A DNA stretch of 64,000 bases, taken from assembly GCA_040285855.1 (NCBI GenBank), contig JAUFOQ010000004.1:1674001-1738000 (forward strand), read 5' to 3'. Below the pieces are notes generated by a model that was given only the letters and a program-made list of their open reading frames with translations, searched no databases and had not been told where the DNA came from. The translations under genes were made by a program, and so were the position numbers. This DNA is from Eukaryota sp. GEM-RC1 (lineage: Eukaryota). Positions 1 to 64,000 of this stretch are shown piece by piece. Every line of letters starts with the position of its first letter. Positions within the stretch are counted from its first letter, which is position 1.

Positions 1-1062
1 CCATTCGGTACTTACAGAAACATTGTGATATAACTTGCGTTTATTGTTCAACGAATGTAAGTACCAGGCGGAGTATTCATATGAAACTGACCGACCATCA
101 GCACTGAATATCTGGACTAAAGGTTCAATGATGATACCATGTCTAGGATCCCAAGAGTAGGTGGAAGGAAACCTATAAGTATCACCAGCTCTACTATCAT
201 ATAAGTCACCCAAAAACTGTTTTATGGCTTGAGGAGACGTGCCAGGAGGAACATTTTTTAGCAAGTAATGTCTTCCAGCAGGCATTCTATGACGCAAAGT
301 GGGATGCCAGGGAGCAAATTTGGCAAGATGCCACAAGTCGTAGTCAGTGATGGAGACACTCTGATCGTACGGACTTGCAAACGGGATGAGATCGTTGGGA
401 ACTGCATCTCTATGAGGTCTAGACACATAACCGGTTTGTTGTTCTACAGCTAGAGCTCTCTCAGTCATGGAAAGATTGGCTGTTTTTTGTTGTTGCTCCA
501 GAAGCTGTCGTTTTGCTTCTTCTGCCCTGGTCTTATGCTGAGCTAGGACTGTTTGAAGTTGCCTAAGGCTCTCTTCAACCTCCCTAGACAGAGGAACTGA
601 AGGATCAACGTTATCTTTATTTAATAAACTACTAACTAACAAGGAAGAATCAGAAAAATGATGAGAGGGCAAAGATGTTAGCTGAACTACAGACGAAGTA
701 GTATTACCCACAACATTGTCTCCCGGAGTACCACTGGTATCTGAAGAGACAACGGTAACTCCGTATTTCTCCAGTACCTTCTTGATTCCAAGAGGATCTT
801 CCTGTTCTGGTCCAATGGATGAATCCAAAGGACCAGGGTTGCCGCCAGACTCCGAAGAGCCCAAGGGTCTTATACCAGTCGTTTCGCCGGCTTCCGAAGA
901 AGCCAAGGAACTTCCATCAACGTTTGAAGATGGGCTCTCGTGTGAGGAGAGACTCTCGGGTGAGGAGAGTTCGGACACAAAGTCCTCTTCATCTACTGAG
1001 GATTCAGTAGGCACTTCGATCGGGGTGGCAGAGCTCTTCGATACTCTGGTCTTTTGACAGAC
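1..1062 (-). CDS. Uncharacterised ORF open to the window edge (~350 codons); Ser/Glu-rich N-terminus, short coiled coil, then globular region; possibly mobile-element encoded
   Basis: Manual minus-strand translation is stop-free from ~1062 to base 1 (KTRVSKSSATPIEVP...EESLRQLQTVLAQHKTRAEEAKRQLLEQQQ...WHPTLRHRMPAGRHYLL...). It is missing from the ORF track because no stop is in the window; the start is unclear. Confidence 0.5.
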
Positions 1063-1223
1063 CTACTTGGCTGTCTGCGGTTAGTAACTCCTTTCTTAGG
1101 AGCAGCTGTAGTAAGATTCCTCTTTTTACCATGAGGATAATAATTATTAATACCTAAAGGTGCAAAGGGGAAGGTAAAGGGTGTTTATAAATCAAATTAT
1201 ACGTACTAGTAACACTTCACTAA

Positions 1224-3282
1224 CACCTGTGGCTAACATCTGAAGTTCATAACTTTAAAATTCCAAATAATCGTCCTATATCAACAATTGACACAGACCT
1301 TCGTGATTTTGTTGCTGGAGCAGGAATCCATACTGCCAATTCAAACTACACTGGATATAAGCACTGTGTTACTGATACATTTGGCACATGTCATTTACCA
1401 GAACTTGATTTTGATCATATCAACCGAGCTTTTGAATACACTACTCAGTATGAAATGTGGCCTGCGTTTGAACTAAATATTCGTCCCAATTATGAGATGT
1501 ACATTAAAAGATTTATCAATACAGTAATGGGTAAGAAAGAGTTTGAAAGAAGAATGAAGAAGAAACGTAATTTAGTTTTAGGTCCAGAACTTGCAGGACT
1601 AACAGGACGTGAAGCTCAAAAGTTCACTAGTTACTTCAGATTTCGCTTAAAGATATTGAAAGATCAAATTTTGTATCGACCTAGAGATGAAGCCCTACAG
1701 TATATTAATTCTTTTAACTCTGCCACTCACCCTGAGAATCTTAAGTTTATTGATGAAGTTTCCAAAGTTTTTAATGCTGATTTCAGTATGTTAATATTTG
1801 AACAGATCAATTCCCTAATGACTGATAAAATTCCAGAATTACTTCAAAGATTTAACATCATATTTCCTGCTACAATCACTACTAAGGACAATGAAACTGT
1901 AGACGTTCATAATTTACTTTACACAGTTCAGGAGTATCCACTTCATTTTCTAAGAAATTCTCTTCAAATCTCAGATTACTTGGAATCCAAGGGTGCTAAG
2001 TTGTATAATGTAATTCCTCTAAGTTTAGAGAATACTCCTTGTTTTTTCCCAATAGACACTAGAACTCTTTGGGGACTGGCTAAGCACTGTTTTGGATACA
2101 AGAATAATGACAAGAAGATTGGTCCTCTACATTCAAAAGTGACTAATTACATGTCTGCTGATCAGATTAAAAACATGACACATTCTCAACAACAAGATTA
2201 CTGGAAAAGATGGTTTAACTGTGATGACAGAAGTTTTCACAAAGCCAATTTTGAATTCAACAACTATGCTGTAACTGATGGAATTTCTATTTGTTTTCAA
2301 TTTGTTAGAAAGGATTTGAAAGGAATGAAATGTAAACCTGATTCAAGTAAAGCTTCAGTAAAAGTACAATATTTCAATGAATATGATAGGTCTGACTTTA
2401 TTTCTAAACAAATGGTTTATGTGGACATTGGAAAGAGAGATATGCTACAACTTGCATCTAAATCAAATAGGGAAATTCAAAATCCTCTAAAGAAATACAA
2501 CTTCTTACGATTGACGCATGCTGAGTGGTCTAGAGTTTCAAGAAAGCATAAAAGAATCCACCAGTACCTTGTCAGAAAGAGATCTGGTACTAGTCCCTCA
2601 GGTCAGACGAAGACAATTGAGGAATGGAACACTTGGTTAGGTGAAGATCAGAACTCTAAGACAGTCAACTACAATAAATTTAGAGAATTTATGCTGAATA
2701 AATGCATTCACTACAATGCAACTAAAGACTTCTATGCTTTGCATATATGGAGGATTCACAAAATCCAAAATCATGTCCATAAGCAAAAGACAGAGTCTAA
2801 ATTGGTTAACAGCATTGTAAAAACGTTCGGTAGTCGTGACAAAATCGTACTATGTATTGGTGATTTAGGTCAGAAGCCAATGTCCAACTTAAAACACAGT
2901 CCACCATCCAGAACTAAGACTTGGACTTCATTCTTTCAGAGAAATGGTTTTTTAACAGTGTTGAATGATGAGAGAAACACTTCGTCCAAGTGTCCAGAAT
3001 GTCATGAAGATGTTTTTGAAACTTCTATTGAGGTTGTTAACCCAAAGCCCAAATCAAGAGAGAAGAGAGAATGGATTCATCCACATGGCTTACTAGAGTG
3101 TAAGAGTGAACATTGTCTGGGAGAAGTAAAGAATCGATTGAAAGGGGGAAAAGAAAGGGCATACAGTGCCCAGTCAAATGTATTGGAACCGAAACAAGAT
3201 GACTTGTTTGAACATGATGAACATGTTCGAACACTGGATGAGTGGAAGTGATGAGAGAGTAGAGTATCTGAGTAGAAATTAG
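1224..3282 (+). CDS. Fanzor1-like (TnpB/Cas12 superfamily) RuvC nuclease; one frameshift at 3141-3152
   Basis: Motifs in expected order: TDGISICFQF; RuvC-I VYVDIGKRD (D 2424-2426); IVLCIGD; RuvC-II plus Zn finger NDERNTSSKCPEC (E 2970-2972); HGLLECKSEHC. After dropping one base in AAAGGGGGAAAA the frame continues YWNRNKMTCLNMM...ERVEYLSRN* (TAG 3280-3282). Frame is open from 1224; first ATG at 1455. Confidence 0.88.
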
Positions 3283-3400
3283 CTTTATTTTTGTTATCTG
3301 GCCGGTGAAACCCGGCCATATTTGGTTAAGTCCATATATAAGCATTGAGGATTGAAGCCAAATCCATACTTCTCTCTACTATCTCTACCTGATGTGAGAA
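3283..3400 (+). ncRNA. Candidate Fanzor omegaRNA scaffold (ends unknown)
   Basis: GC-rich stem TGGCCGG(3299-3305)/CCGGCCA(3312-3318) closing TGAAAC, then a second stem ATTTGGTTAAGTCC(3320-3333)/GGATTGAAGCCAAAT(3349-3363), directly 3' of the restored Fanzor stop. Confidence 0.5.
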
Positions 3401-3809
3401 CTGCAGTATAAGACTAAATGGTATAAGTGACTTGTGGGCAGAGGAGCAGTGAATGATGAAGAATCTACAGTAGATAGGTGATAAACAGAAGAAATACAAT
3501 TATTAAGTTGCTTTTTCCCTTCACACGACTATAATCCACCAGAGTACAACTGGGTCATCAAACCGGTAAAGACAAGCTTGAACCGTTAGCTTTCTCCAGG
3601 GTTCAATTGGGAATTAACGGTTGTAAGACACGTTTAACTCACTTGCAAAAAGATATCTGTGGCCGTAACGTAAACGCTGTTTGAACTCAATCCATCTTGT
3701 GGATGAAGCATCAGACTAGGATGATTTGAAATCTCCAATTTTCTCTTACCTTCTCCCTTCAGTGATCTCACCGGATCACTATTATTTGACATTAATAAGC
3801 TATTAGCTG

Positions 3810-4355
3810 ATGTCTGAATCTGTTGAGCGTTTTCGAAGATTCACTCCCAGTGGGAGAGTTATCAAAACTGGAAACATGCAAAGGCTTACTCTCAAAGAAA
3901 GACCAACACCCCAAACTCAAACGAAACCTCCAACCCTACAAAAACCTGACACTGCATTAATGAAACAAACTCTTGGCTTTTCTTTCGATGATTCTGAATC
4001 CGAAAACGACAGTTCTGTTCCCATATCATCTGCATCTCTAGTCAGCGCTTATTCATTCGACACCAGTGACGATGACGATGAAGAAGAACAAGATCTCCTT
4101 CTACAAGAACTGGAAAAGATCCGTAAAGAAAGAGAAGTACAAAAGTCCCTTGATGATTCTGTCTCATACCATTTGATTCCTTCATCTGATACTCAAAGCT
4201 CTGTTCTGAAGGAAGAAGCCTCGATGGATTGGTATGAGGATTCATTGTTTGGTGTTACGCCTCAAGAACCTCCAACAAAGAAGTCCAAGGTTCATATGAG
4301 TGATGTTCTGAAAACTGAGTTTCATAAAAACTTTCTACGGCAGTTTATCAAGTAA
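3810..4355 (+). CDS. CWC15: Spliceosome protein Cwc15/Cwf15
   Basis: Acidic tract followed by LLQELEKIRKER, WYEDSLF, and C-terminal DVLKTEFHKNFLRQFIK matching the Cwf15 C-terminus. Confidence 0.8.
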   Translation: MSESVERFRRFTPSGRVIKTGNMQRLTLKERPTPQTQTKPPTLQKPDTALMKQTLGFSFDDSESENDSSVPISSASLVSAYSFDTSDDDDEEEQDLLLQELEKIRKEREVQKSLDDSVSYHLIPSSDTQSSVLKEEASMDWYEDSLFGVTPQEPPTKKSKVHMSDVLKTEFHKNFLRQFIK

Positions 4356-12754: not shown

Positions 12755-13547
12755 TTTATTGTTTCTTTTATTTTCTAATGTAAATATATATGTTTCGTCA
12801 AAAGAGTGTTGTTGATTTCATTTCTGCGAAAACACTACGACAGAGGTAATCAGTTTCCTAATTTGCTTTTAGTTTCACGTGTTACATAATGAACAATGAA
12901 TGTTAGATTTTTCAGATCATCATTTTAGTATACTTTAGTGAAAAATTAACGAACAGTTTAAACCAAATTAACGAACGTCGATACTGGTTCACAAAGTTTG
13001 AATGACACCAAATGATAACCACTTTTTGCAATTTTAATGCATTAATATAAAGAAGAAGAAGAGTCGTCGTTTAGGTTTATTCACTACATCGGCGACAATA
13101 ATTAGTCTCACTGAGACTAAATACGAAGTGAGACTATATGTGGTAGAGGACAATTAGTCTCACAAAAATATTCTTACCAACATACATATTAAGACCAATA
13201 AAATGATTGGTTCTAATTCTACATTAAGAAACGGGGTTTATGATCAGTCAGTGAAATAAATGCATTTGCAGAAGTAAATAACTAACAGACACTAAATAAA
13301 GTATCTAAACTATGATCCTTCTGTCCATCACCGAACAACTTACCTAAAATTGAATTAAAATATCTGTGCATTGAACGAAACAACGCAAACGTTAACCTAC
13401 TCAACCAAAAATTTTCATTGAAAACTTTACCATACTCAGAACACAATTTACCAAAGGAAGTTAAAAATCCTTGTGCAGCTGGTCCAATATTACCGTATAT
13501 CGACATCGCAAAAGGTTGAAACACAAAAGAATTGTACCTGTCAACAT

Positions 13548-15578
13548 GGAAAAACACCGTATTTCATCATAATTCAATTTATAAAACCTAAAATCATCAT
13601 CTTCATCCCTTGAACTTTACTTAATGAAAAACACACTTTCTGCATTGGCTAATGCATTCTATCCTGGAAACATGCAACTTCAAGTGGGTGAGATTCTTGG
13701 AAAGAATCAGCTTGATGCTTCGACCCTTCTCCACGTCTACTCTATAAAGACAGATAAAGAAATATTCTGCAGTCAGTCGAACAATAGAAGACTAGATTTT
13801 GCTTGCAGTGCCGAAGAATGCTCCTTTCATGTCCATTGCACTTCCGATGGGGAGGAACATCCATTTACACTTAAAACCTTGAGAGGTCACCATCCATTCT
13901 GCAAGGCACTGCCAAAACAAAAAGTCACCGAACCTGTACTTGGTAGACTTTTAAGGGATCTCCTTCGACACGAAAAGCTCTCTCCTACTAAAATCTTCCA
14001 CGATCTTGATCGGCAAATGTCCAAAAGCTCCGTAGCAAGAGCCTGTCAAAAAGCACAATCCCTGTTCTTAGGGACATTGAAATCCTCATATGCATTTGTG
14101 GGTCCTTGGTGCAAAGAGCTTATTCAGAAAAATCCAGGCTCTGTAGCCGTGAGTACTGTCACTGAGAATGTCTTTACTTCGTGTTTTGTGGCACTTAAGG
14201 CAAGTATTGATGGATATCCATTTACGAAGCCATTAATTGCATTAGACGGGACCCATATTCGTACCTCTTTCAAAGGTGTTTTGTTGATCGCGGTAAGTGT
14301 AGATGCTATGGGTCATATTTTTCCTTTGTGCTATGGTGTATATGGCTCCGAAACTAAAGAAGCATGGACCCTTTTTTTAAGTTCCATGAAGGATATTTAC
14401 GATGTTAGTGGACGAATCTTCATTTCTGATCGCCAAAAAGGTCTTATTCCAACGTTAAAAGAATTGTTTCCGGAAAATCAGCACTGTCATTGTGTTTATC
14501 ATTTAGTACAAAACTACAAAACGAATGGTGGAAAAGGATCTGGACAGACAGTTCCTTTTTTATGGCAGGCTGCACGCACTCCAATCAAAGAAGACTTTGA
14601 AGAACTCTTGCAAAAGATACAGGAACATTGTCCTCAGGGGTATAACTATCTCCACACTAGTTCAGAATTTGAAGCTTGGGCGGAAAGTTGCATGACTGTT
14701 GCACGTTATGGACATATTACTTCAAACGTATGTGAAAGTATGAATGCTTCACTTTTGAAAGAGCGCATGTATCCTGTCACACAGTTACTGGAAGAAATCC
14801 GGAAGAAAATGGGGGAATGGTTTGTTGTAAGACGTTCAGAAGCAGCGGAAATGCAAGGAAGACAAGTTGATGTAGTGGAAGTGTTTGTTCAGACGCTAAT
14901 TGCGAAGACTCACACAATGCAAAGCACTGTAGTTGACAAAGAAGAAAAATTGTTTGAAGTATTGAGTGATGGAAAGCAGTATCTCGTCAATATCAGCTTG
15001 AAAGAGTGTAGATGTAAGCATTGGAGAGATGGGTTACCATGTGCTCATGCTATGAAGGTTATACGTGATTTCCACTTCAACATGGAAGACTTTATTGAGT
15101 TAGTGTACAGCACTGAGTATTATAGAAGAACGTACGCAATGAGACTCTTCTCACTCGATGAAATCCAAGGTGATGGTACCACCTTACCTCCTGAAAACAA
15201 TCGTGCTCCTGGAAGACCTTCCAACAACGCAAGAAGAAGAAAGTTTTTGAGCGGAAGAGGAAACAGTTGGGAACATCAAAGACGCGACCTGGAAAACTTC
15301 CAAGAGCTGATGATGAACTCATGGGGAAAGGTCACCAAATGGAAGTAGTTGAACGAGTTAATCCTGTGGAAGGAAAGGAATCCCGTCGGTGTTCTCTTTG
15401 TAGGCAGTTGGGACATAATGTCAGAACATGTCCAGAGAAGGAATAAATATATATAGTTCTTGTGTATACTTTTATTGGGCAATGAAATCAATGTATTGAT
15501 GAGAACCGGAACGAGAGAAAATGTGTTGATGAAATCTGGGACAGAAGATGAAAATTTGATGAAATCCGGGATGCACCC
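13548..15578 (+). mobile_element. Mutator-like (MULE) DNA transposon, apparently complete
   Basis: 9-bp TSD TGTCAACAT (13539-13547, 15579-15587). Imperfect TIRs GGAAAAACACCGTATTTCATCA / GGGTGCATCCCGGATTTCATCA. Confidence 0.88.
13624..15348 (+). CDS. MULE transposase with SWIM zinc finger
   Basis: LDGTH, ISDRQKGL, CVYH, TSNVCESMN (DDE with CxxH); SWIM CRC...GLPCAH. Confidence 0.92.
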   Translation: MKNTLSALANAFYPGNMQLQVGEILGKNQLDASTLLHVYSIKTDKEIFCSQSNNRRLDFACSAEECSFHVHCTSDGEEHPFTLKTLRGHHPFCKALPKQKVTEPVLGRLLRDLLRHEKLSPTKIFHDLDRQMSKSSVARACQKAQSLFLGTLKSSYAFVGPWCKELIQKNPGSVAVSTVTENVFTSCFVALKASIDGYPFTKPLIALDGTHIRTSFKGVLLIAVSVDAMGHIFPLCYGVYGSETKEAWTLFLSSMKDIYDVSGRIFISDRQKGLIPTLKELFPENQHCHCVYHLVQNYKTNGGKGSGQTVPFLWQAARTPIKEDFEELLQKIQEHCPQGYNYLHTSSEFEAWAESCMTVARYGHITSNVCESMNASLLKERMYPVTQLLEEIRKKMGEWFVVRRSEAAEMQGRQVDVVEVFVQTLIAKTHTMQSTVVDKEEKLFEVLSDGKQYLVNISLKECRCKHWRDGLPCAHAMKVIRDFHFNMEDFIELVYSTEYYRRTYAMRLFSLDEIQGDGTTLPPENNRAPGRPSNNARRRKFLSGRGNSWEHQRRDLENFQELMMNSWGKVTKWK

Positions 15579-16989
15579 TGTCAACATTCAATTTTTTAAT
15601 TAAGTGACAGTACTTTGTATTTTTTCCTTTATTCTACATTATAAATCATCTTCCTTCTATAATTTCTTCGTCCTGGAAACACCAGTGAGTGATGATGAGA
15701 AATAGGGAAAAATGTCATATCAGTGGAAGTACAATGTTGAACCGATCAATTTGTTACAACACACAATATATATGCTACTAGTTGAGAATTTGAACTACAT
15801 TGTACATCCAATTTTCAAAAATGAATGTTATTATACTACACTTATGATGTCAAGTAGATACCTCCATATTATCTGGATTCTCATTTTCCTCCCATTCTAG
15901 CAATTCTTCATTCTTGTATCTCCTCTATTGAAGTAAAGTCTATTCTTGTTGATAATTGTCTGCAAATCAACAGATATATGATTCTCATGAAAATGTCATG
16001 TTTCACACAAATTTGTGAACAATAAAATGGATACAATATCGAACATTACTACAAATGAGAGCGTTAATTCTCCTTCTGTTACATACACATAAGTAAAGCG
16101 ACTTTTATTGGTCCCAAATCTGTCAATGTACTTAAACTGAACATCATTTTTGAACGTATTTGGAAAAATTGATTACCATTAATAGTCTCACTGAGACTAA
16201 ATGTCAACTGAGACTAATTATTGTCGCCGGTGTAGTGGTTTGCTAAATAATTCAATCTGTGTTTGTGATAACCGATCTACAGCCACATTTCGTCACGTTG
16301 TTAGTTGCAAGAAATTTTTGCAATTTCGATCTGTTCTACATAACGCTGTCCGTAACGTTACTTATGAAATGTTCAAATCCTACAATTATAGTTGTAAAAT
16401 TGAACCTCTTCTGAAACATTATAGTGACAATACCGTGTTTGATTCTCGGCGTGGTGACTTAATTGCTCCTTTTCTGGATTCATCTCAAGTTTTGGTTGAT
16501 TTTACTACAGTTGACCCGTTTGCAAAAGTCTACCAAGACTCCATATTGAATGATTCGAATGGTTATCTGGAAAAGGCTGAACAGCGAAAGTGTTCAAATT
16601 ATGCGGATGCTTTGCAGAAGCTTAATGAAAATCTATATTGCAAGTTTTCATATGTTCCGTTTGCAATTTCATTTTTGGATAATATTGGTCTAGCCGGTTT
16701 AAAGTTTTTGAGTGATTTTAGTCTTTTATGTCGTTCTAATGGCAATGTGTTTAATAGCGCTGTATGGATTAATCGAATTATGTTCGCTCTTTATAGAAGC
16801 ATTCCCAAATATTTATGTTCCATTTATTCGAAGTTGTATAGGGACAATTCTCGTGTTGATGTGGTGAATTTAACTTCTTTCGTTTTCTGAATTAGTATGT
16901 ATGAATTTACAGTTGCAAATGAAATCTTATAATATAAAGAAGTGTGAATTTGGTGGACACACTTTCTCGTTAATTACAAAGAGCTTGTT

Positions 16990-17095
16990 CTGCTACAAGT
17001 AGTTAACAAATACTAGTTCAGAAAATGAAAGTACATAGTTGTAGTTAAATTCTACACATCAATTCGGGAGTTGTCCTTGTAAAAATTAGAATTAA
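16990..17095 (-). mobile_element. Short inverted copy of the RLE-LINE 3' end
   Basis: Reverse complement (TACAAGGACAACTCCCGAATTGATGTG...TTTTCTGAACTAGTAT) resembles 16836-16900. Confidence 0.55.
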
Positions 17096-17233
17096 TGGCA
17101 CTTATGATACGTACATGTTGTTATGAGTCCTCCTATCATTTGCAAGATAATACAGTTACTCAAATTTATATCGCACAATAATGTTGTGGTCACAAATTTG
17201 ATTCGCACATCTTTCACACACATTTGTTCATCT

Positions 17234-17325
17234 ATGTTAGCCACAGGTGTTAGTGAAGTGTTACTAGTACGTATAATTTGATTTATAAACACCCTTTACC
17301 TTCCCCTTTGCACATTTAGATATTA
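17234..17325 (-). repeat. Inverted near-identical copy of 1150-1239, the segment upstream of the Fanzor frame
   Basis: About 80 nt exact match GTGCAAAGGGGAAGGTAAAGGG...CTGTGGCTAACAT; the copies diverge after CTAACAT. Confidence 0.9.
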
Positions 17326-21883: not shown

Positions 21884-25509
<3,626 letters not shown>

Positions 25510-28296: not shown

Positions 28297-30039
28297 GTTA
28301 TTTGTTTATTGTATTGTATTAGTTTATCGTGTAAATCTAGTTGTATATTGTGTTTGATATGGTTGTATGCTTAAGACATCTAGAAACAATACAAGCCTAA
28401 CAGTATTATGTTAGCTCAAACAACTCGAGTTTTCACATTGGAATGACTATTGTAAGATAAATCAATCAGTTTTAGATACTGACGAAACACAAATTAATGC
28501 CGAATTTTTGAACATTTTTCAAATAGCCGTTCCAACTGCTACTGTACTTCAACTCAATTTTGAAGATGTGTATGATCTAAACTAATTCTTCTACCTTCGT
28601 TCTTGGTTAGATTTCCACTCATTGTTCCAGATTTGCTTTCATTTTTGCAAAACAAATCTGTAAAAGCGAAAAAAAAATCTGCATCAGAAACCTAATGCCA
28701 TCCAGGGACTGTCAAAAATATACTACATGCCCAAAATCTGTTGCAATACAGTGTAACAACACTGTAATACATCGCAGTTTATTGTAACCAACATAACTAT
28801 TGTCCAGTTGAGTATTTACGGTACATGCACCCATTTAACTGATATCCCACATGATAATCATTCACTATGGATTATTTAATTTAACTAGTTTCTAATTAAA
28901 AATCATGATAAACAAATTAATGTCCCAAACTTGTCGGTTTACAGAAAGAACGGTTTGTATTGTCAAGTCTAGATCACATAACTGATTTGAAACATTCGTG
29001 ATAATTGCAATTAAATGCAATTTTGCGGACCAATTACTAGTTGCAATTAATTAATTGGTAATAATGTACTTAGCAATTCAATTTTTCTAAGTCTTCCACT
29101 GAAGTTGTATCTTGACAATTCGTAAACATTCGAGAGTTACCGAAAAGACGTTCCAAATTTGATGATGCTGCGATGAAGTTCAAATCGGGATAACACATCT
29201 CTCATATATGTAGAACGTCTCAATAAGTTGAAAGTTGGCAACTTGAAACTGGTTCCAGCTTGAACAGAAACTACTTCAAACTCTTGATGTTCCAAACTCA
29301 AATTGTTTATAATCACGTCCATCACCCTGGAAAGCAAAAAGCAATTTATCTTGGTAATCAGTTTGCAAGTGGCAACATAAGATTGTCATATGAAGAAGTT
29401 GCGAATGATAGCAGACATTTTTTATGAGAAATGATGGTCTATAAGGTACTACACACCAACAGGTTTTAAGTATTGTTACGCTTTTTCAAACTATTTTTAC
29501 GACAAAAACAGAAAAACATATTTCCATAGATGGAAAACGCGGAATGATTTTCAGTTCCGACATTCTACACTTCCACTTCTTTAGTAACACCATTCTTCAA
29601 AATCCGTGAAACACTGATGACTAGCAAGACACATAGATCCATAAGAAACGCATATTATTTGCTGTTAGTCATTCCTTGAACTGATAGACTTCGCTGAGCA
29701 TCAATACCCAAGCAAAGCATTTCTAAAATTTGAAGATGACGATCAGACATTCTACTTCAATTGTATCTTGGAGTAGGCTTGTAAAAATCGTGGTCCAAAA
29801 ACAGAAAACGACGTAGTTTATCGTTTTGTCCGACTGTGTTTTTTAATAAAAACGTTCAAAAAATACAATTCTACTTTCCACTATATTCTCACTTCATTTT
29901 CGACAATCATATAATTCAAAGTTCGATTACAGTCTCAAAGAAGTTAGATACAGTAATCGGATTACTGTATCTAACTTCTTTTGAGATTAAAAAAGACAAT
30001 TATAGCCAAACTAATACGATTTTGAGAGTCTAAGTATTT

Positions 30040-55805: not shown

Positions 55806-56568
55806 AATCTCTTATTTGAATACAGGAAAGTGCCTCCAATAATGAAACTCGGCTTATGAATTTCTCCCAACTGCCCAAGTCACATCATGCACACTATAGA
55901 TTGGACTTTCATCACATTTTGTCATCATTATGTCTGTTCATACACTATAAGTAGACCGTACTTCGAGACCCTTCTACTTTTTTACACAAAGCTGTCTATG
56001 GGGTCTCAATACTTCCAAATGTGTTCATCTTTAAATGGCGATATTACAAGACTGTGTACAGCAGTGTCTCACATCTATCTACCCTAAGTCTTCCAATGAG
56101 ATTGCAGCAACCTCGTCAGTGGTTCTTTCTCCATCACCTCATCACACCACTACTATTTCTAGATCAACTGAAGTCATCTTCACCCATAAACTCTTTTCTA
56201 CAACTCGTCGTCTCCCTTCTCTCTTCCCAATCAATCCAACTTCAGTTCTTTTCCTCCTCAATACTACAACACGTCATTGATCATTCAAAATCGAATGACC
56301 CACCATCTCTTTCCAAGAACAAGACTCTCTTCTCTCCTTTCTCCTAGGCATCTACCTCTCCAATACATATCCTTTAGTCTTATTGAAACTAACCTGTATA
56401 ATCTATATTAAGGCATTGATTCATCATCCACAAGCTAAAAGTCATGAAGTGTTTAATTGCATTCACTTGATTTGAGTTAATATCTTTGACATCTTCAGAA
56501 TTGATGTTACATGGTCACAAATGATTTCTTGTTTCAGAGCTAAAGCACTATTGGGTGAATGATTACAC

Positions 56569-57368
56569 TAGGAATGTTAAATAGTTCAGTTCAGTTCAAA
56601 AAAGCGTGAACTGACCTGAACTAGTACACTGACTACCATGAACTGAACTGAACTAGTTCATGAACTGAACTGTATGAACTGGAGCAAATATACCATTGTT
56701 TCCACAATGATGTACCTAGGATCAAATCAACAGGTCACCAACAAGTACATGTAGTACTCAATTGTTGCAAAATTTAATAAAACATCATGTTAAAAACATA
56801 CTCTAATTAGACATCAGTAATTAATCATGAGTGCAAGCAAACATGCGATTGAACTGAATCATCACTTAACTGGGGTCTTGGTTTACATGCAATCAGTCCT
56901 GCAAGTAAAAACAAAGGCTCAGACGCAACACTACTTGCTTGAATTGTTGCATTTCTCCAAAATAGCGGTGACAATCTAGGGTACGCGTTGTGATTTAAGG
57001 TCAAATGGTGTAAAGGACTGGATGAAACATCACAAGTAGCTTCTGTGATATACTTGTTCAACTCCGCAAACACTTGCTTTCGACGACCTTCTTCTTCAGC
57101 TTTCGGTTCTTTGCCGTAAATTTACCATCAAGAAAGGTAAATTTATTTTAGAAAAACGTAAATTTGATCTTTAAACACTTGCGTTCTTACGTTGCTTTAA
57201 GTTGACCATTTCATAACATTATTGGGATACTTCATCCTACGTTCCTTATATGTGGTGAAAAAGTGCATATACTAGTATGTAGTAATAAAAATGGAATAAA
57301 ATGTAAGTTCATTTAGTTCAGTTCAGTTCATGAAGGTGTGAACTGAACTGAACTATTTAACATTCCAA
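56569..57368 (-). mobile_element. Internally deleted hAT element (800 bp)
   Basis: ~30-bp TIR T(A/T)GGAATGTTAAATAGTTCAGTTCAGTTCA; 8-bp TSD GATTACAC (56561-56568, 57369-57376); GAACT repeats; dimerisation-domain remnant YPRLS...QASSVASE at 56825-57073. Confidence 0.9.
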
Positions 57369-57429
57369 GATTACACATATAGATGAAGAAGATGATGAAT
57401 ATGTATAATATCGTTTTATACATATTCAG

Positions 57430-58805
57430 TAGGGATGGGCAAACTCCAACTCGACTTCACTCCACTCGTAGAAATTTTAGAACTCCAACTCGACTTCACT
57501 CCAAACAAAAATTTTGCAAGTGAACTTCACTCCAACTTCACTTCATTCCAAACTCAAGTCACTTGAACACTTCACTCCACTTCTGAATTTTATTTCTACT
57601 CCGAATGCTTGTAAACAAGAAAGGAATCTTCGTGTTCAATATCGACCGTCTTCCTCCAGCAACCGACACAGACCATGGGTGTTGCGGATGATTTCATCGA
57701 TGAAGGATAAGTTGGTCACTTATCATGATCACATCTATAACTTCACAACATATGCTGCTATGCTTCTTGATCCTCGTTTTAAGACGAGATTGATGCCATT
57801 GAAGTTGAAGACTGAAAACTTCAGAGAGCAGTTCAAAGAATATTTTATTTCACATCAACCCTCTCTTGATATTGAATCAGTAGAAGTCCAACCTGCAGAA
57901 CCTGCAATCGTTGAAGGTGAAGTCGTTGATATTGAACCCGTACCCGAATGCTCTCTCCATTTGGCTGTTTCACATCTGGTTGATCAACATGAGGAGCCGA
58001 TTGGCGAACTTGACTCATTTGAACTAGATCCATTGGAACCCCTTACTTCTAATCCTTTAATATTTTGGAAACACCGAACAGATAAGTACCCTGTTCTTTC
58101 TTCCATAGCTCGTCAGTTTCTTGCTGTACAGGTATCATCAGTTGCATCATAACGATGTTTTTCTGCAAGTGGACGTACGCTCAGCAAAACAAGAAATCGT
58201 CTCTCTGATGAAGATTTGGAAGTACTTCTTTGTCTTAAATCAAAAAAAAACGGGGTTTATGATCAGTCAGTGAAATAAATGCATTTGCAGAAGTTATTAA
58301 CTAACAGACACTAACTAAAGTATCTAAACTATGATCCTTCTGTCCATCACTGAACAACTTACCTAAAATTGAATTAAAATATCTGTGCATTGAACGAAAC
58401 AACGCAAACGTTAACCTACTCAACCAAAAATTTTCATTGAAAACTTTACCATACTCAGAACACAATTTACCAAAGGAAGTTCTTAAATCATGGTATGCAA
58501 TGAATCTAAACGTCCCTTCATAGCCTTAGTTTAATAAATAAGATAAACAACTTGTTAGACTTTCCTTTATTTGTTTACCTTGTTTCTAGTGACAAAGCAT
58601 ATAGGTGTTACTCTACAGCGGTAAAACTATTGTACACGATGTACAGCTTAGTCAAAAATACTGATTAAATCACAAGTTTCACTCCAACTCGACTTACTCG
58701 TAAATTTTGACAGAACTCCAACTCGACTCCCACTCGTAGAAATTTGGAGTGAAGTGGAGTTTGGAGTCTACTCGTAGAACTCGAGTGGAGTTTTGCCCAA
58801 CTCTA
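57430..58805 (+). mobile_element. Decayed hAT element with transposase C-terminal remnant
   Basis: TIRs TAGGGATGGGCAAA / TAGAGTTGGGCAAA; ACTCCA repeats; LLDPRFK, PLIFWK, YPVLSSIARQFLAVQVSSVAS*RCFS. No matching TSD seen. Confidence 0.8.
58243..58480 (-). mobile_element. 5'-truncated RLE-LINE copy inserted in the hAT remnant
   Basis: Near-identical to ~13230-13462. 10-bp TSD TCTTAAATCA (58233-58242, 58481-58490); removal restores LLCLKSWY. Confidence 0.9.
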
Positions 58806-62879: not shown

Positions 62880-63650
62880 ATATCGAGACTTAACAGTTTC
62901 TTCTCCTTTGGACATTTCTGAACAGGCCAAACAGGATAAGTACAAGAAACCATTGCTAGCTTTAAAACATGTAAAACATGTTGAATACGAATTATGCCCT
63001 TTGCTGTTTCAATTTACGGACGTTTAGGAAAAGTGCAATGAATTTGCTAAACGATTTCGGAAAAATCGTAAAAATAGGATGAACAAACGTTTTGATCATA
63101 TGTTATGGTTGAATCGGATCGTTTTACTGTTTTTAAAACAGTTCCCTAATCATCTCCAAAGCGTTATTAGCAGTGAGTGTCATTTATGAGGACAAAGCTG
63201 TTGTAGGTTTGATAGCGACGGGTGTTATTTTAATGACATCAAATTTTAGTTGTTTGATCTATTACATTTATTATAAACTCTAATTTTTCGTTTGTATAGT
63301 TGCTCTGAGGGCCTGATATTTATATTAACAACTTTGGTAGCACTCGTTTAACTTATTCTAAATGTAATAGACTAAACAATTAAAATTTGATATCATTAAA
63401 ACAACACCCGTCTCTATCAAATCTTACAACAGCTTTATCCTCATAAGGGAACTCACAGCTAATAAAGCTGTGGAGATGATTAGGGAATTGTTTTAAAAAT
63501 AGTAAAAACAAAACAATTCAACAATAACAAGTGATCAAAACATTTTTTCATCCTATTTTTTAGCATTGTTCCCAAATCGCTTAAAACATTCATATATTCT
63601 ATATTTCCTAAACAGCCATAAATTGAAACAGCAAAAAGCATAATTCATAT
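62880..63650. mobile_element. Two decayed RLE-LINE 3' ends in tail-to-tail orientation (imperfect inverted repeat)
   Basis: Plus copy reads EQAKQDKY...AVSIYGRLGK...LWLNRI. 63372-63650 is the diverged reverse complement of ~62985-63258. Confidence 0.75.
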
Positions 63651-64000
63651 TAGAAATCTAATGAATATGGTGATCTGAACATAGTTTAACTGGAAGAACA
63701 ACAAATCTAGAATTTTGTTTGGAAGCCCTATAAGGATATATTTGTTTTTTGCAGTGTTGTACCATGACCGCCATAACTGCCATGCGTGCCATGCGTCCAT
63801 AGGCACATGACATTTTCTGATTATGGCCGTGTTGTTATGGCGTGTTAACACGTGTTGTTATTCCAACAATGACAATGTACTGCATGAGCATGTACAGTAG
63901 TTCTATGATATGTATACTTAAAGAATGTTATTTATTAAACCTATATAAAGAGTTCTAATAGTCAGAATCGCTGTCCATGCTGTGTTCTGTCAATCCTTGT

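Follow-up and report, generated by a model that had tools for sequence, protein, structure and literature searches.

A Two-Hairpin Tract behind a Broken Skoliomonad Fanzor1 Gene Is Likely the omegaRNA of a Fanzor1 Lineage with a Predicted Fused Exonuclease

Results and Discussion

The Fanzor1 Locus and Its Lesions

The DNA analyzed here (hereafter the window) is a 64-kb stretch from Eukaryota sp. GEM-RC1, near the left edge of which a Fanzor1 remnant lies between a Ty3/Gypsy element and two closely spaced hairpins. The features on which this work bears are the following:

1..1131 (-), 5' (gag-like) part of a Ty3/Gypsy element, running off the left window edge and sitting in the Fanzor gene
1148..1238 (-), short LTR (about 90 bp) of this Ty3/Gypsy element, its outer end being the Fanzor break point
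1239..3152 (+), Fanzor1 coding remnant with REC, WED, RuvC-I D, RuvC-II E and zinc finger
3142..3282 (+), out-of-frame C-terminal tail with RuvC-III WNRNK (Asn for Asp) and terminal YLSR, from three-frame translation
3293..3298 (+), predicted omegaRNA 5' leader ending in TTATC, placed by reference to published Fz1 omegaRNAs
3299..3318 (+), SL1 candidate, a 7-bp GC-rich stem with 6-nt loop TGAAAC
3320..3363 (+), SL2 candidate and predicted terminal scaffold stem, core 3323/3324-3359/3360, with a 1x2 internal loop
3361..3380 (+), predicted guide plus first flanking bases, with a start that may be off by several nt and that does not hold for a longer scaffold
3761..3780 (+), second, weaker SL1-like hairpin of 7 bp with loop TCACCG, 50 nt upstream of the Cwc15 start

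A sequence-only reading of this DNA had called the gene upstream of the hairpins a Fanzor, an identity that sequence and fold matches confirm and narrow to Fanzor1. Thus, the remnant matches PpFz1 with an E-value of 8e-16 and SpuFz1 with one of 4e-14 (phmmer), and ORF 1224-3251 matches, among solved structures, PpFz1, SpuFz1 and, weakly, GtFz1. Protein P0001 carries the motifs VDIG, NDERNTS, CPEC/CKSEHC and VTDG (RuvC-I D, rearranged RuvC-II E, C4 zinc finger and WED TDG), and the structure model of a paralogue (pLDDT 83.5) retrieves SpuFz1 in Foldseek at E 1e-24. Remnant 1239-3152 aligns at 91% to residues 189-836 of paralogue P0013, and tail 3142-3282, likewise at 91%, to residues 833-878.

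The reading frame of the window copy is broken twice, by the Gypsy insertion at 1238 and by a frameshift near 3142-3152, so that no full protein can come from the copy as assembled. The Ty3/Gypsy element at 1238 accounts for the missing 5' part of the gene, and simple 5' truncation was rejected in its favor; both the exonuclease discussed below and the Fanzor start are on the far side of this insertion. Residues 150-354 (205 residues) of the ORF at 1-1062 (-) are 98% identical to polyproteins of 1706 and 1731 aa that contain RT and RNase H Pfam domains, with an integrase in one of the two. Ty3 insertions within Fz loci have been described for Spu as well. LTR 1148-1238 has a 98% twin at 17234-17325, flanked by a 4-5 bp direct repeat, as would be the case for a solo LTR with a 4-5 bp target duplication, 16 kb away. 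The Gypsy LTR is unusually short (about 90 bp) and starts with TG but does not end in CA, and the Gypsy polyprotein cluster comprises 23 proteins.

The frame changes in an A/G run at about 3142-3152, and the out-of-frame tail (...YWNRNK...YLSRN) is closed by TAG 3280-3282. Six close proteins reach this run, one of which reads through, four of which (the window's included) continue in the same wrong frame and one of which continues in the other frame; in the sister species, seven proteins keep the frame at this point. A homopolymer assembly error is a plausible cause, since the named skoliomonad relatives were assembled from nanopore reads (PMC11316075). The SMC3-like gene at 21884-25010 is likewise split by a frame change, which suggests indel errors in the assembly. 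Dead as a gene, the window copy could still act through its RNA in trans, by analogy with SpuFz1, the ghost RNAs of which work in this way (PMC10432273).

The Skoliomonad Fanzor1 Family and Its Predicted Exonuclease

The window protein belongs to a 90% cluster of 18 members, the named ones of which are labelled Eukaryota sp. GEM-RC1, and a cluster of 11 members from TZLM1-RC is about 50% identical to it. With at least 18 and at least 11 near-identical proteins in two species, recent mobility is indicated. Further subfamilies, of 30-55% protein identity, were added by a search of 1.84 billion representatives; all 12 representatives looked up come from TZLM3-RCL or TZLM1-RC, and the named family members fall in three species of skoliomonads, which are metamonad protists of soda lakes. 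No relatives of the skoliomonad family were found in the viral, metagenome or prokaryote contigs searched. One locus (L264) holds a Fanzor1-like fragment on a 3.3-kb bacterial MAG contig that is probably misbinned and of eukaryotic or viral origin.

In a FastTree phylogeny of 135 RuvC regions, from which near-duplicates and short pieces were excluded, a long branch with an SH-like support of 100 separates the 12 skoliomonad rows from all others. At the RuvC-III position, 30 of 31 skoliomonad proteins have Asn, and 89 of the 92 others have Asp. This Asn is no sign of inactivation, because GtFz1, which also has Asn, is active in vitro and SpuFz1 D606N is more active than the wild type (PMC11423790). 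The family folds are nearest to SpuFz1 (TM 0.79-0.82 by target) and PpFz1, the match to the GtFz1 fold being weaker (TM 0.60-0.68), and the position of SpuFz1 W570 is occupied by Lys in the window's subfamily.

The N-terminal domain of the paralogues is predicted, from motifs and structure models, to be a PolB-type DEDDy 3'-5' exonuclease with its motifs intact. Longer family members match PF03104 above the cut-off, and of 14 aligned proteins 11 have the ExoI residues (D-x-E) and all 14 those of ExoII (D) and ExoIII (Y...D). The ExoIII motif occurs in 23 proteins, seven of which continue to WNRN, and the spacing between the ExoIII and REC motifs is 156-173 residues in the 20 proteins with both. 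In the model of P0179 (pLDDT 78.9), which matches SpuFz1 (TM 0.82 by target), the exonuclease lies immediately N-terminal of the Fanzor, and this model also gives weak Foldseek matches to Pol delta, epsilon and alpha (E 2e-4 to 2e-3). The order exonuclease-Fanzor1 recurs in gene models of three species, from which an in-frame fusion is predicted. A 2A-like motif, D(V/I)ExNPGP or a near-variant, is found in 8 of 195 proteins, all skoliomonad and always upstream of the exonuclease; four of the eight have His or Pro in place of Glu-x. A Ulp1-like protease is seen on either side of the 2A-like motif, in P0181 with a Pfam E of 0.002, below the cut-off, and in P0026 and P0119 as identified by eye. 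The gene model of P0178 joins a DEAH-type helicase to the exonuclease-Fanzor, a single case that is possibly a merged neighboring host gene.

No natural Fanzor-exonuclease fusion was found in the literature searched, subscription journals and most supplements lying outside this search, and the word "exonuclease" is absent from those parts of the Fanzor papers that were word-searched for such a fusion. The lineage and its exonuclease-fused protein appear to be new, but Fanzor-survey supplements beyond the reach of this search may list these proteins already. Engineered exonuclease fusions to Fanzor and Cas12 (PMC13434818) likewise join an exonuclease to a mobile-element nuclease, but there with 5' exonucleases and by design; the domain predicted here is natural, of PolB type with 3'-5' polarity, and in frame with Fanzor. 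In P, piggyBac and LTR elements, DEDDh or DnaQ-like accessory exonuclease domains also travel with a mobile-element nuclease; those domains sit on transposases and polyproteins, whereas here the domain is predicted on Fanzor itself.

The Hairpin Tract behind the Stop

SL1 lies 16 nt downstream of TAG 3280-3282 and 22 nt downstream of the YLSR codons, and pairs 3299-3305 with 3312-3318 in a perfect 7-bp stem with six G-C pairs, the place and 7-bp length of the stem being those given by the sequence-only reading. That reading's longer imperfect stem directly after the first is equally real, SL2 (3320-3363) beginning 1 nt after SL1 and having pair probabilities of 0.6-1.0, and the surroundings are AT-rich as described, with a GC content of 19% upstream of SL1, 70% within it and 31% within SL2. 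Among short stems of the window, 3299-3318 has the highest GC content; 65 perfect stems of 7 bp or more were listed for the window, and only this one and a 17-bp palindrome have six G-C pairs. No other hairpin of 7-bp/6-nt form lies within 150 nt of the YLSR codons; the chance of any 7-bp/6-nt stem per 40 nt of window is 0.06, and a T-starting loop together with a TC leader is present in only 5 of 190 such stems.

The sense strand of 3293-3363 folds at -25.1 kcal/mol (z -3.95, with 1 of 200 shuffles equally good) and the antisense strand at -20.7 kcal/mol (z -3.24), while SL2 by itself has a z of -2.89; 8 of 6393 70-nt windows fold equally well. SL1 is able to form on either strand and scored as terminator-like, and SL2 includes G-U pairs, the sense strand being more stable than the antisense. 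The structured tract had been proposed to span 3283-3420, and this claim survives for 3293-3363 but not for 3364-3420, which falls outside the tract because z is -1.0 for 3364-3420 and +1.6 for 3364-3450. For 3400-3500 z is +0.7, nine sense-strand segments wholly within 3364-3830 range from -1.04 to +1.64, and weak stems at 3366-3409 and 3401-3441 are present in some folds. The structured tract is 3293-3363, not 3283-3420.

There is no second copy of the hairpin within the 64-kb window. Rfam returned nothing near a gathering score, the best being sR5 at 3450-3490 with 22.9 of 40 bits, and a homologue search with the antisense ORF across the hairpin tract found none. A stem-pattern search of viral contigs gave 0 matches, and 103 metagenome matches to this pattern were rejected as chance (all at least 46% GC, at most 25 nt alike, none Fanzor-coding). 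The suggested search for targets of the guide, conducted with candidate guide 3361-3380, gave no target within the window or the viral contigs.

Comparison with Fz1 omegaRNAs

The tract was compared with other Fz1 RNAs from published tables (11 Fanzor1 rows), from which the Torulaspora and Batrachochytrium rows were left out, and from giant-virus loci. Each of the three Fz1 RNAs with a solved structure has an SL1 of 7 bp, beyond which the structure varies (Xu et al., PMC11423790). In Table S3 of PMC11423790 and in Saito's table, most Fz1 omegaRNAs, namely those of Spu, Pp, Gt and one algal virus, start 5-7 nt before SL1, two of them with TTATC, and those of Spu and Pp have a TT(A/T)TCC-like leader followed by 7 bp and a 6-nt loop. 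The RNAs of Spu, Pp and Dishui Lake virus, the last listed in Saito's table, share a 7-bp stem with a T....CG loop. As can be seen from PMC10432273 and PMC11423790, SpuFz1 and PpFz1 resemble the window in having the RNA right past the stop, a TTATC-like leader, a 7-bp SL1, a 6-nt loop and one more stem, and these two proteins, both with short two-stem RNAs, are the best sequence and fold matches. The window differs from them in its TGAAAC loop, 1-nt linker, RuvC-III Asn, Lys at W570 and predicted N-terminal exonuclease. In SpuFz1, the C two bases before SL1 pairs with the last loop G (PMC10432273), a leader-loop C-G pair that Spu, Pp and viral RNAs have and that Gt and the window tract lack; here it is impossible, position -2 being T and the loop ending in C. 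An explanation of the unusual loop by loss of a W570-like residue was rejected, since the C-G pair persists in 13 viral loci in which this residue is non-aromatic. The linker between SL1 and SL2 has 1 nt, or 4-5 should the A-U base of SL2 fray, as against 6-10 in Spu, Pp and viral RNAs. To GtFz1 the likeness lies in the D-E-N triad, an SL1 loop ending in GAAAC and, as judged by eye, a close SL2 with a 1x2 internal loop; the GtFz1 RNA, however, has 150 nt and four stems, whereas no comparable structure follows 3363 here.

The viral set comprised IMG/VR loci L001-L160 and L265-L344, and among the first 160 of these 117 were distinct and had a right-end motif. In 91 of these 117 giant-virus Fz1 loci a perfect 7-bp/6-nt hairpin is found downstream of the YLxR codons, at a distance of 9-17 nt in 71 of the 91, compared to 22 nt in the window. 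All seven SL1 pairs covary among 42 viral loci, which were chosen by leader and loop, so that the invariant C-G there results from selection; a scan of 172 viral loci found a hairpin in 129, of which 124 have the leader-loop C-G pair. The giant-virus Fz1 loci are thus alike in their strongly covarying 7-bp/6-nt SL1 soon after the YLxR codons, and differ in their T....CG loop, 10-nt linker, three-way junction, conserved end motif and RuvC-III Asp (172 of 172). Covariance models from the viral Fz1 RNAs, whether of the full RNA or of SL1 by itself, leave 3299-3363 unlisted up to an E of 10. The proposal that the scaffold spans the hairpins gains from the shape and position of SL1, which match Fz1 omegaRNAs, and loses from these viral models, which miss the tract. 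The viral right ends form a well-conserved, covarying omegaRNA family with a sharp end that supports a covariance model.

Alternative and Preferred Readings

A longer, GtFz1-like omegaRNA, in which further stems close near 3409 or 3446 with the guide beyond, would agree with the abutting of SL1 on SL2 and the GAAAC loop end, both as in GtFz1, with the RuvC-III Asn common to the family and GtFz1, and with the weak stems 3366-3409 and 3401-3441 in some folds. The z-scores past 3363 (-1.0, +1.6 and +0.7 for the three segments given above) and the closer structural relation of the family proteins to SpuFz1/PpFz1 than to GtFz1 make such an RNA unlikely. The hairpins might instead make no guide RNA and represent a DNA-level element end, a 3'-end processing signal (for instance a Helitron-type subterminal hairpin) or host sequence, as the formation of SL1 on both strands, its terminator-like score and its absence from the matches of either viral model would allow. 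This we consider slightly less probable still, on the grounds that SL2 needs G-U pairs with the sense strand the more stable, that shape, leader and distance fit an Fz1 SL1, and that a terminal hairpin and an omegaRNA can coexist. A CTRR motif at the spacing usual for Helitrons was looked for in addition, and none was seen.

The hairpin at 3761-3780 is either a rival site, a second element end or chance. As a rival, the hairpin pair at 3755-3835 would be the working omegaRNA (the end of a long 3' tract or of a second ghost element) and the 3299 stems would be otherwise used. Its loop TCACCG fits the canonical T....CG, making it one of two such stems on both window strands, it is the top local match of the viral SL1 model, and a 7-nt linker leads to a second stem. 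That match, however, amounts to 9.2 bits (E 0.2 in 701 nt) and is unlisted window-wide, z with downstream sequence is only -1.77, and the site lies 480 nt from the stop with its second stem overlapping the predicted Cwc15 start at 3830, so that we regard this reading as highly improbable. Homology of the 3299 and 3761 units was rejected, 19-38% of windows scoring equally. Segment 3761-3835 is preceded by a pyrimidine tract and CAG, resembling a splice acceptor. On the opposite strand, 3386-3792 (-) is a possible small spliced gene head-to-head with Cwc15 (ATG 3792, donor-like site 3642), for which Pfam gave no support and which, if real, would bound the element end.

The reading that we favor, and hold to be probable as a whole, is that of a Spu/Pp-type omegaRNA at 3293-3363 with a guide from about 3361-3364, acting in trans on an exonuclease-fused paralogue that would cut empty alleles and trim the resulting ends. 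The tract is likely the omegaRNA of a Fanzor1 variant, with a predicted boundary, and the two hairpins are likely its guide-RNA scaffold of roughly 70 bases. A scaffold end near 3363 is more likely than one at 3420, and the guide start at about 3361-3364 follows from the SpuFz1/PpFz1 architecture and the loss of structure after 3363. If expressed, a transcript through the element end would be processed into an RNA of about 85-90 nt, with SL1 docking on the RuvC/TNB surface and SL2 on WED/RuvC and with some 15 flanking bases, next to a presumed TAM, directing the nuclease to the empty allele, as for SpuFz1 and PpFz1. Intact paralogues would supply the protein in trans as exonuclease-Fanzor1 fusions, whose release from a polyprotein would come about by a putative 2A-like ribosome skip and whose active site would be D-E-N, like that of GtFz1. 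The fused PolB-type 3'-5' exonuclease, if active, would most likely trim cut DNA ends, the alternative being trimming of the guide 3' end.

An omegaRNA behind a Fanzor is expected, and the novelty would lie in the lineage and the guided protein. We give an even chance to the wider proposal of a multi-copy skoliomonad lineage in which a polyprotein (Ulp1-like protease, 2A, PolB-type exonuclease and D-E-N Fanzor1) is paired with an RNA of about 70 nt that has swapped the CG loop for GAAAC, such that one protein both cuts and trims. With the predicted fusion, its exonuclease intact, retained by three species and across several subfamilies, end processing becomes a role that can be tested directly, one that bears on why transposons retain Fanzors and how their cuts get repaired. 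The lineage would parallel, in nature, the engineered exonuclease fusions, and would be the second instance of an Asn active site throughout a clade.

Other Features of the Window

Elsewhere in the window, a MULE/MuDR transposase at 13624-15348 (PF10551, SWIM) lies between inverted repeats 13082-13145 and 16174-16237, and segment 13226-13462 has a 98% twin at 58245-58481. A MITE-like inverted-repeat pair with a 17-bp palindrome occupies 56568-57369, a 21-bp perfect palindrome is found at 29933-29986, and further self-inverted stretches are present at 62984-63651 and 16814-17104. Segment 30600-55800 (-) holds a very long gene or array of repeated S/F/L-rich beta-type modules that is broken up into many ORFs.
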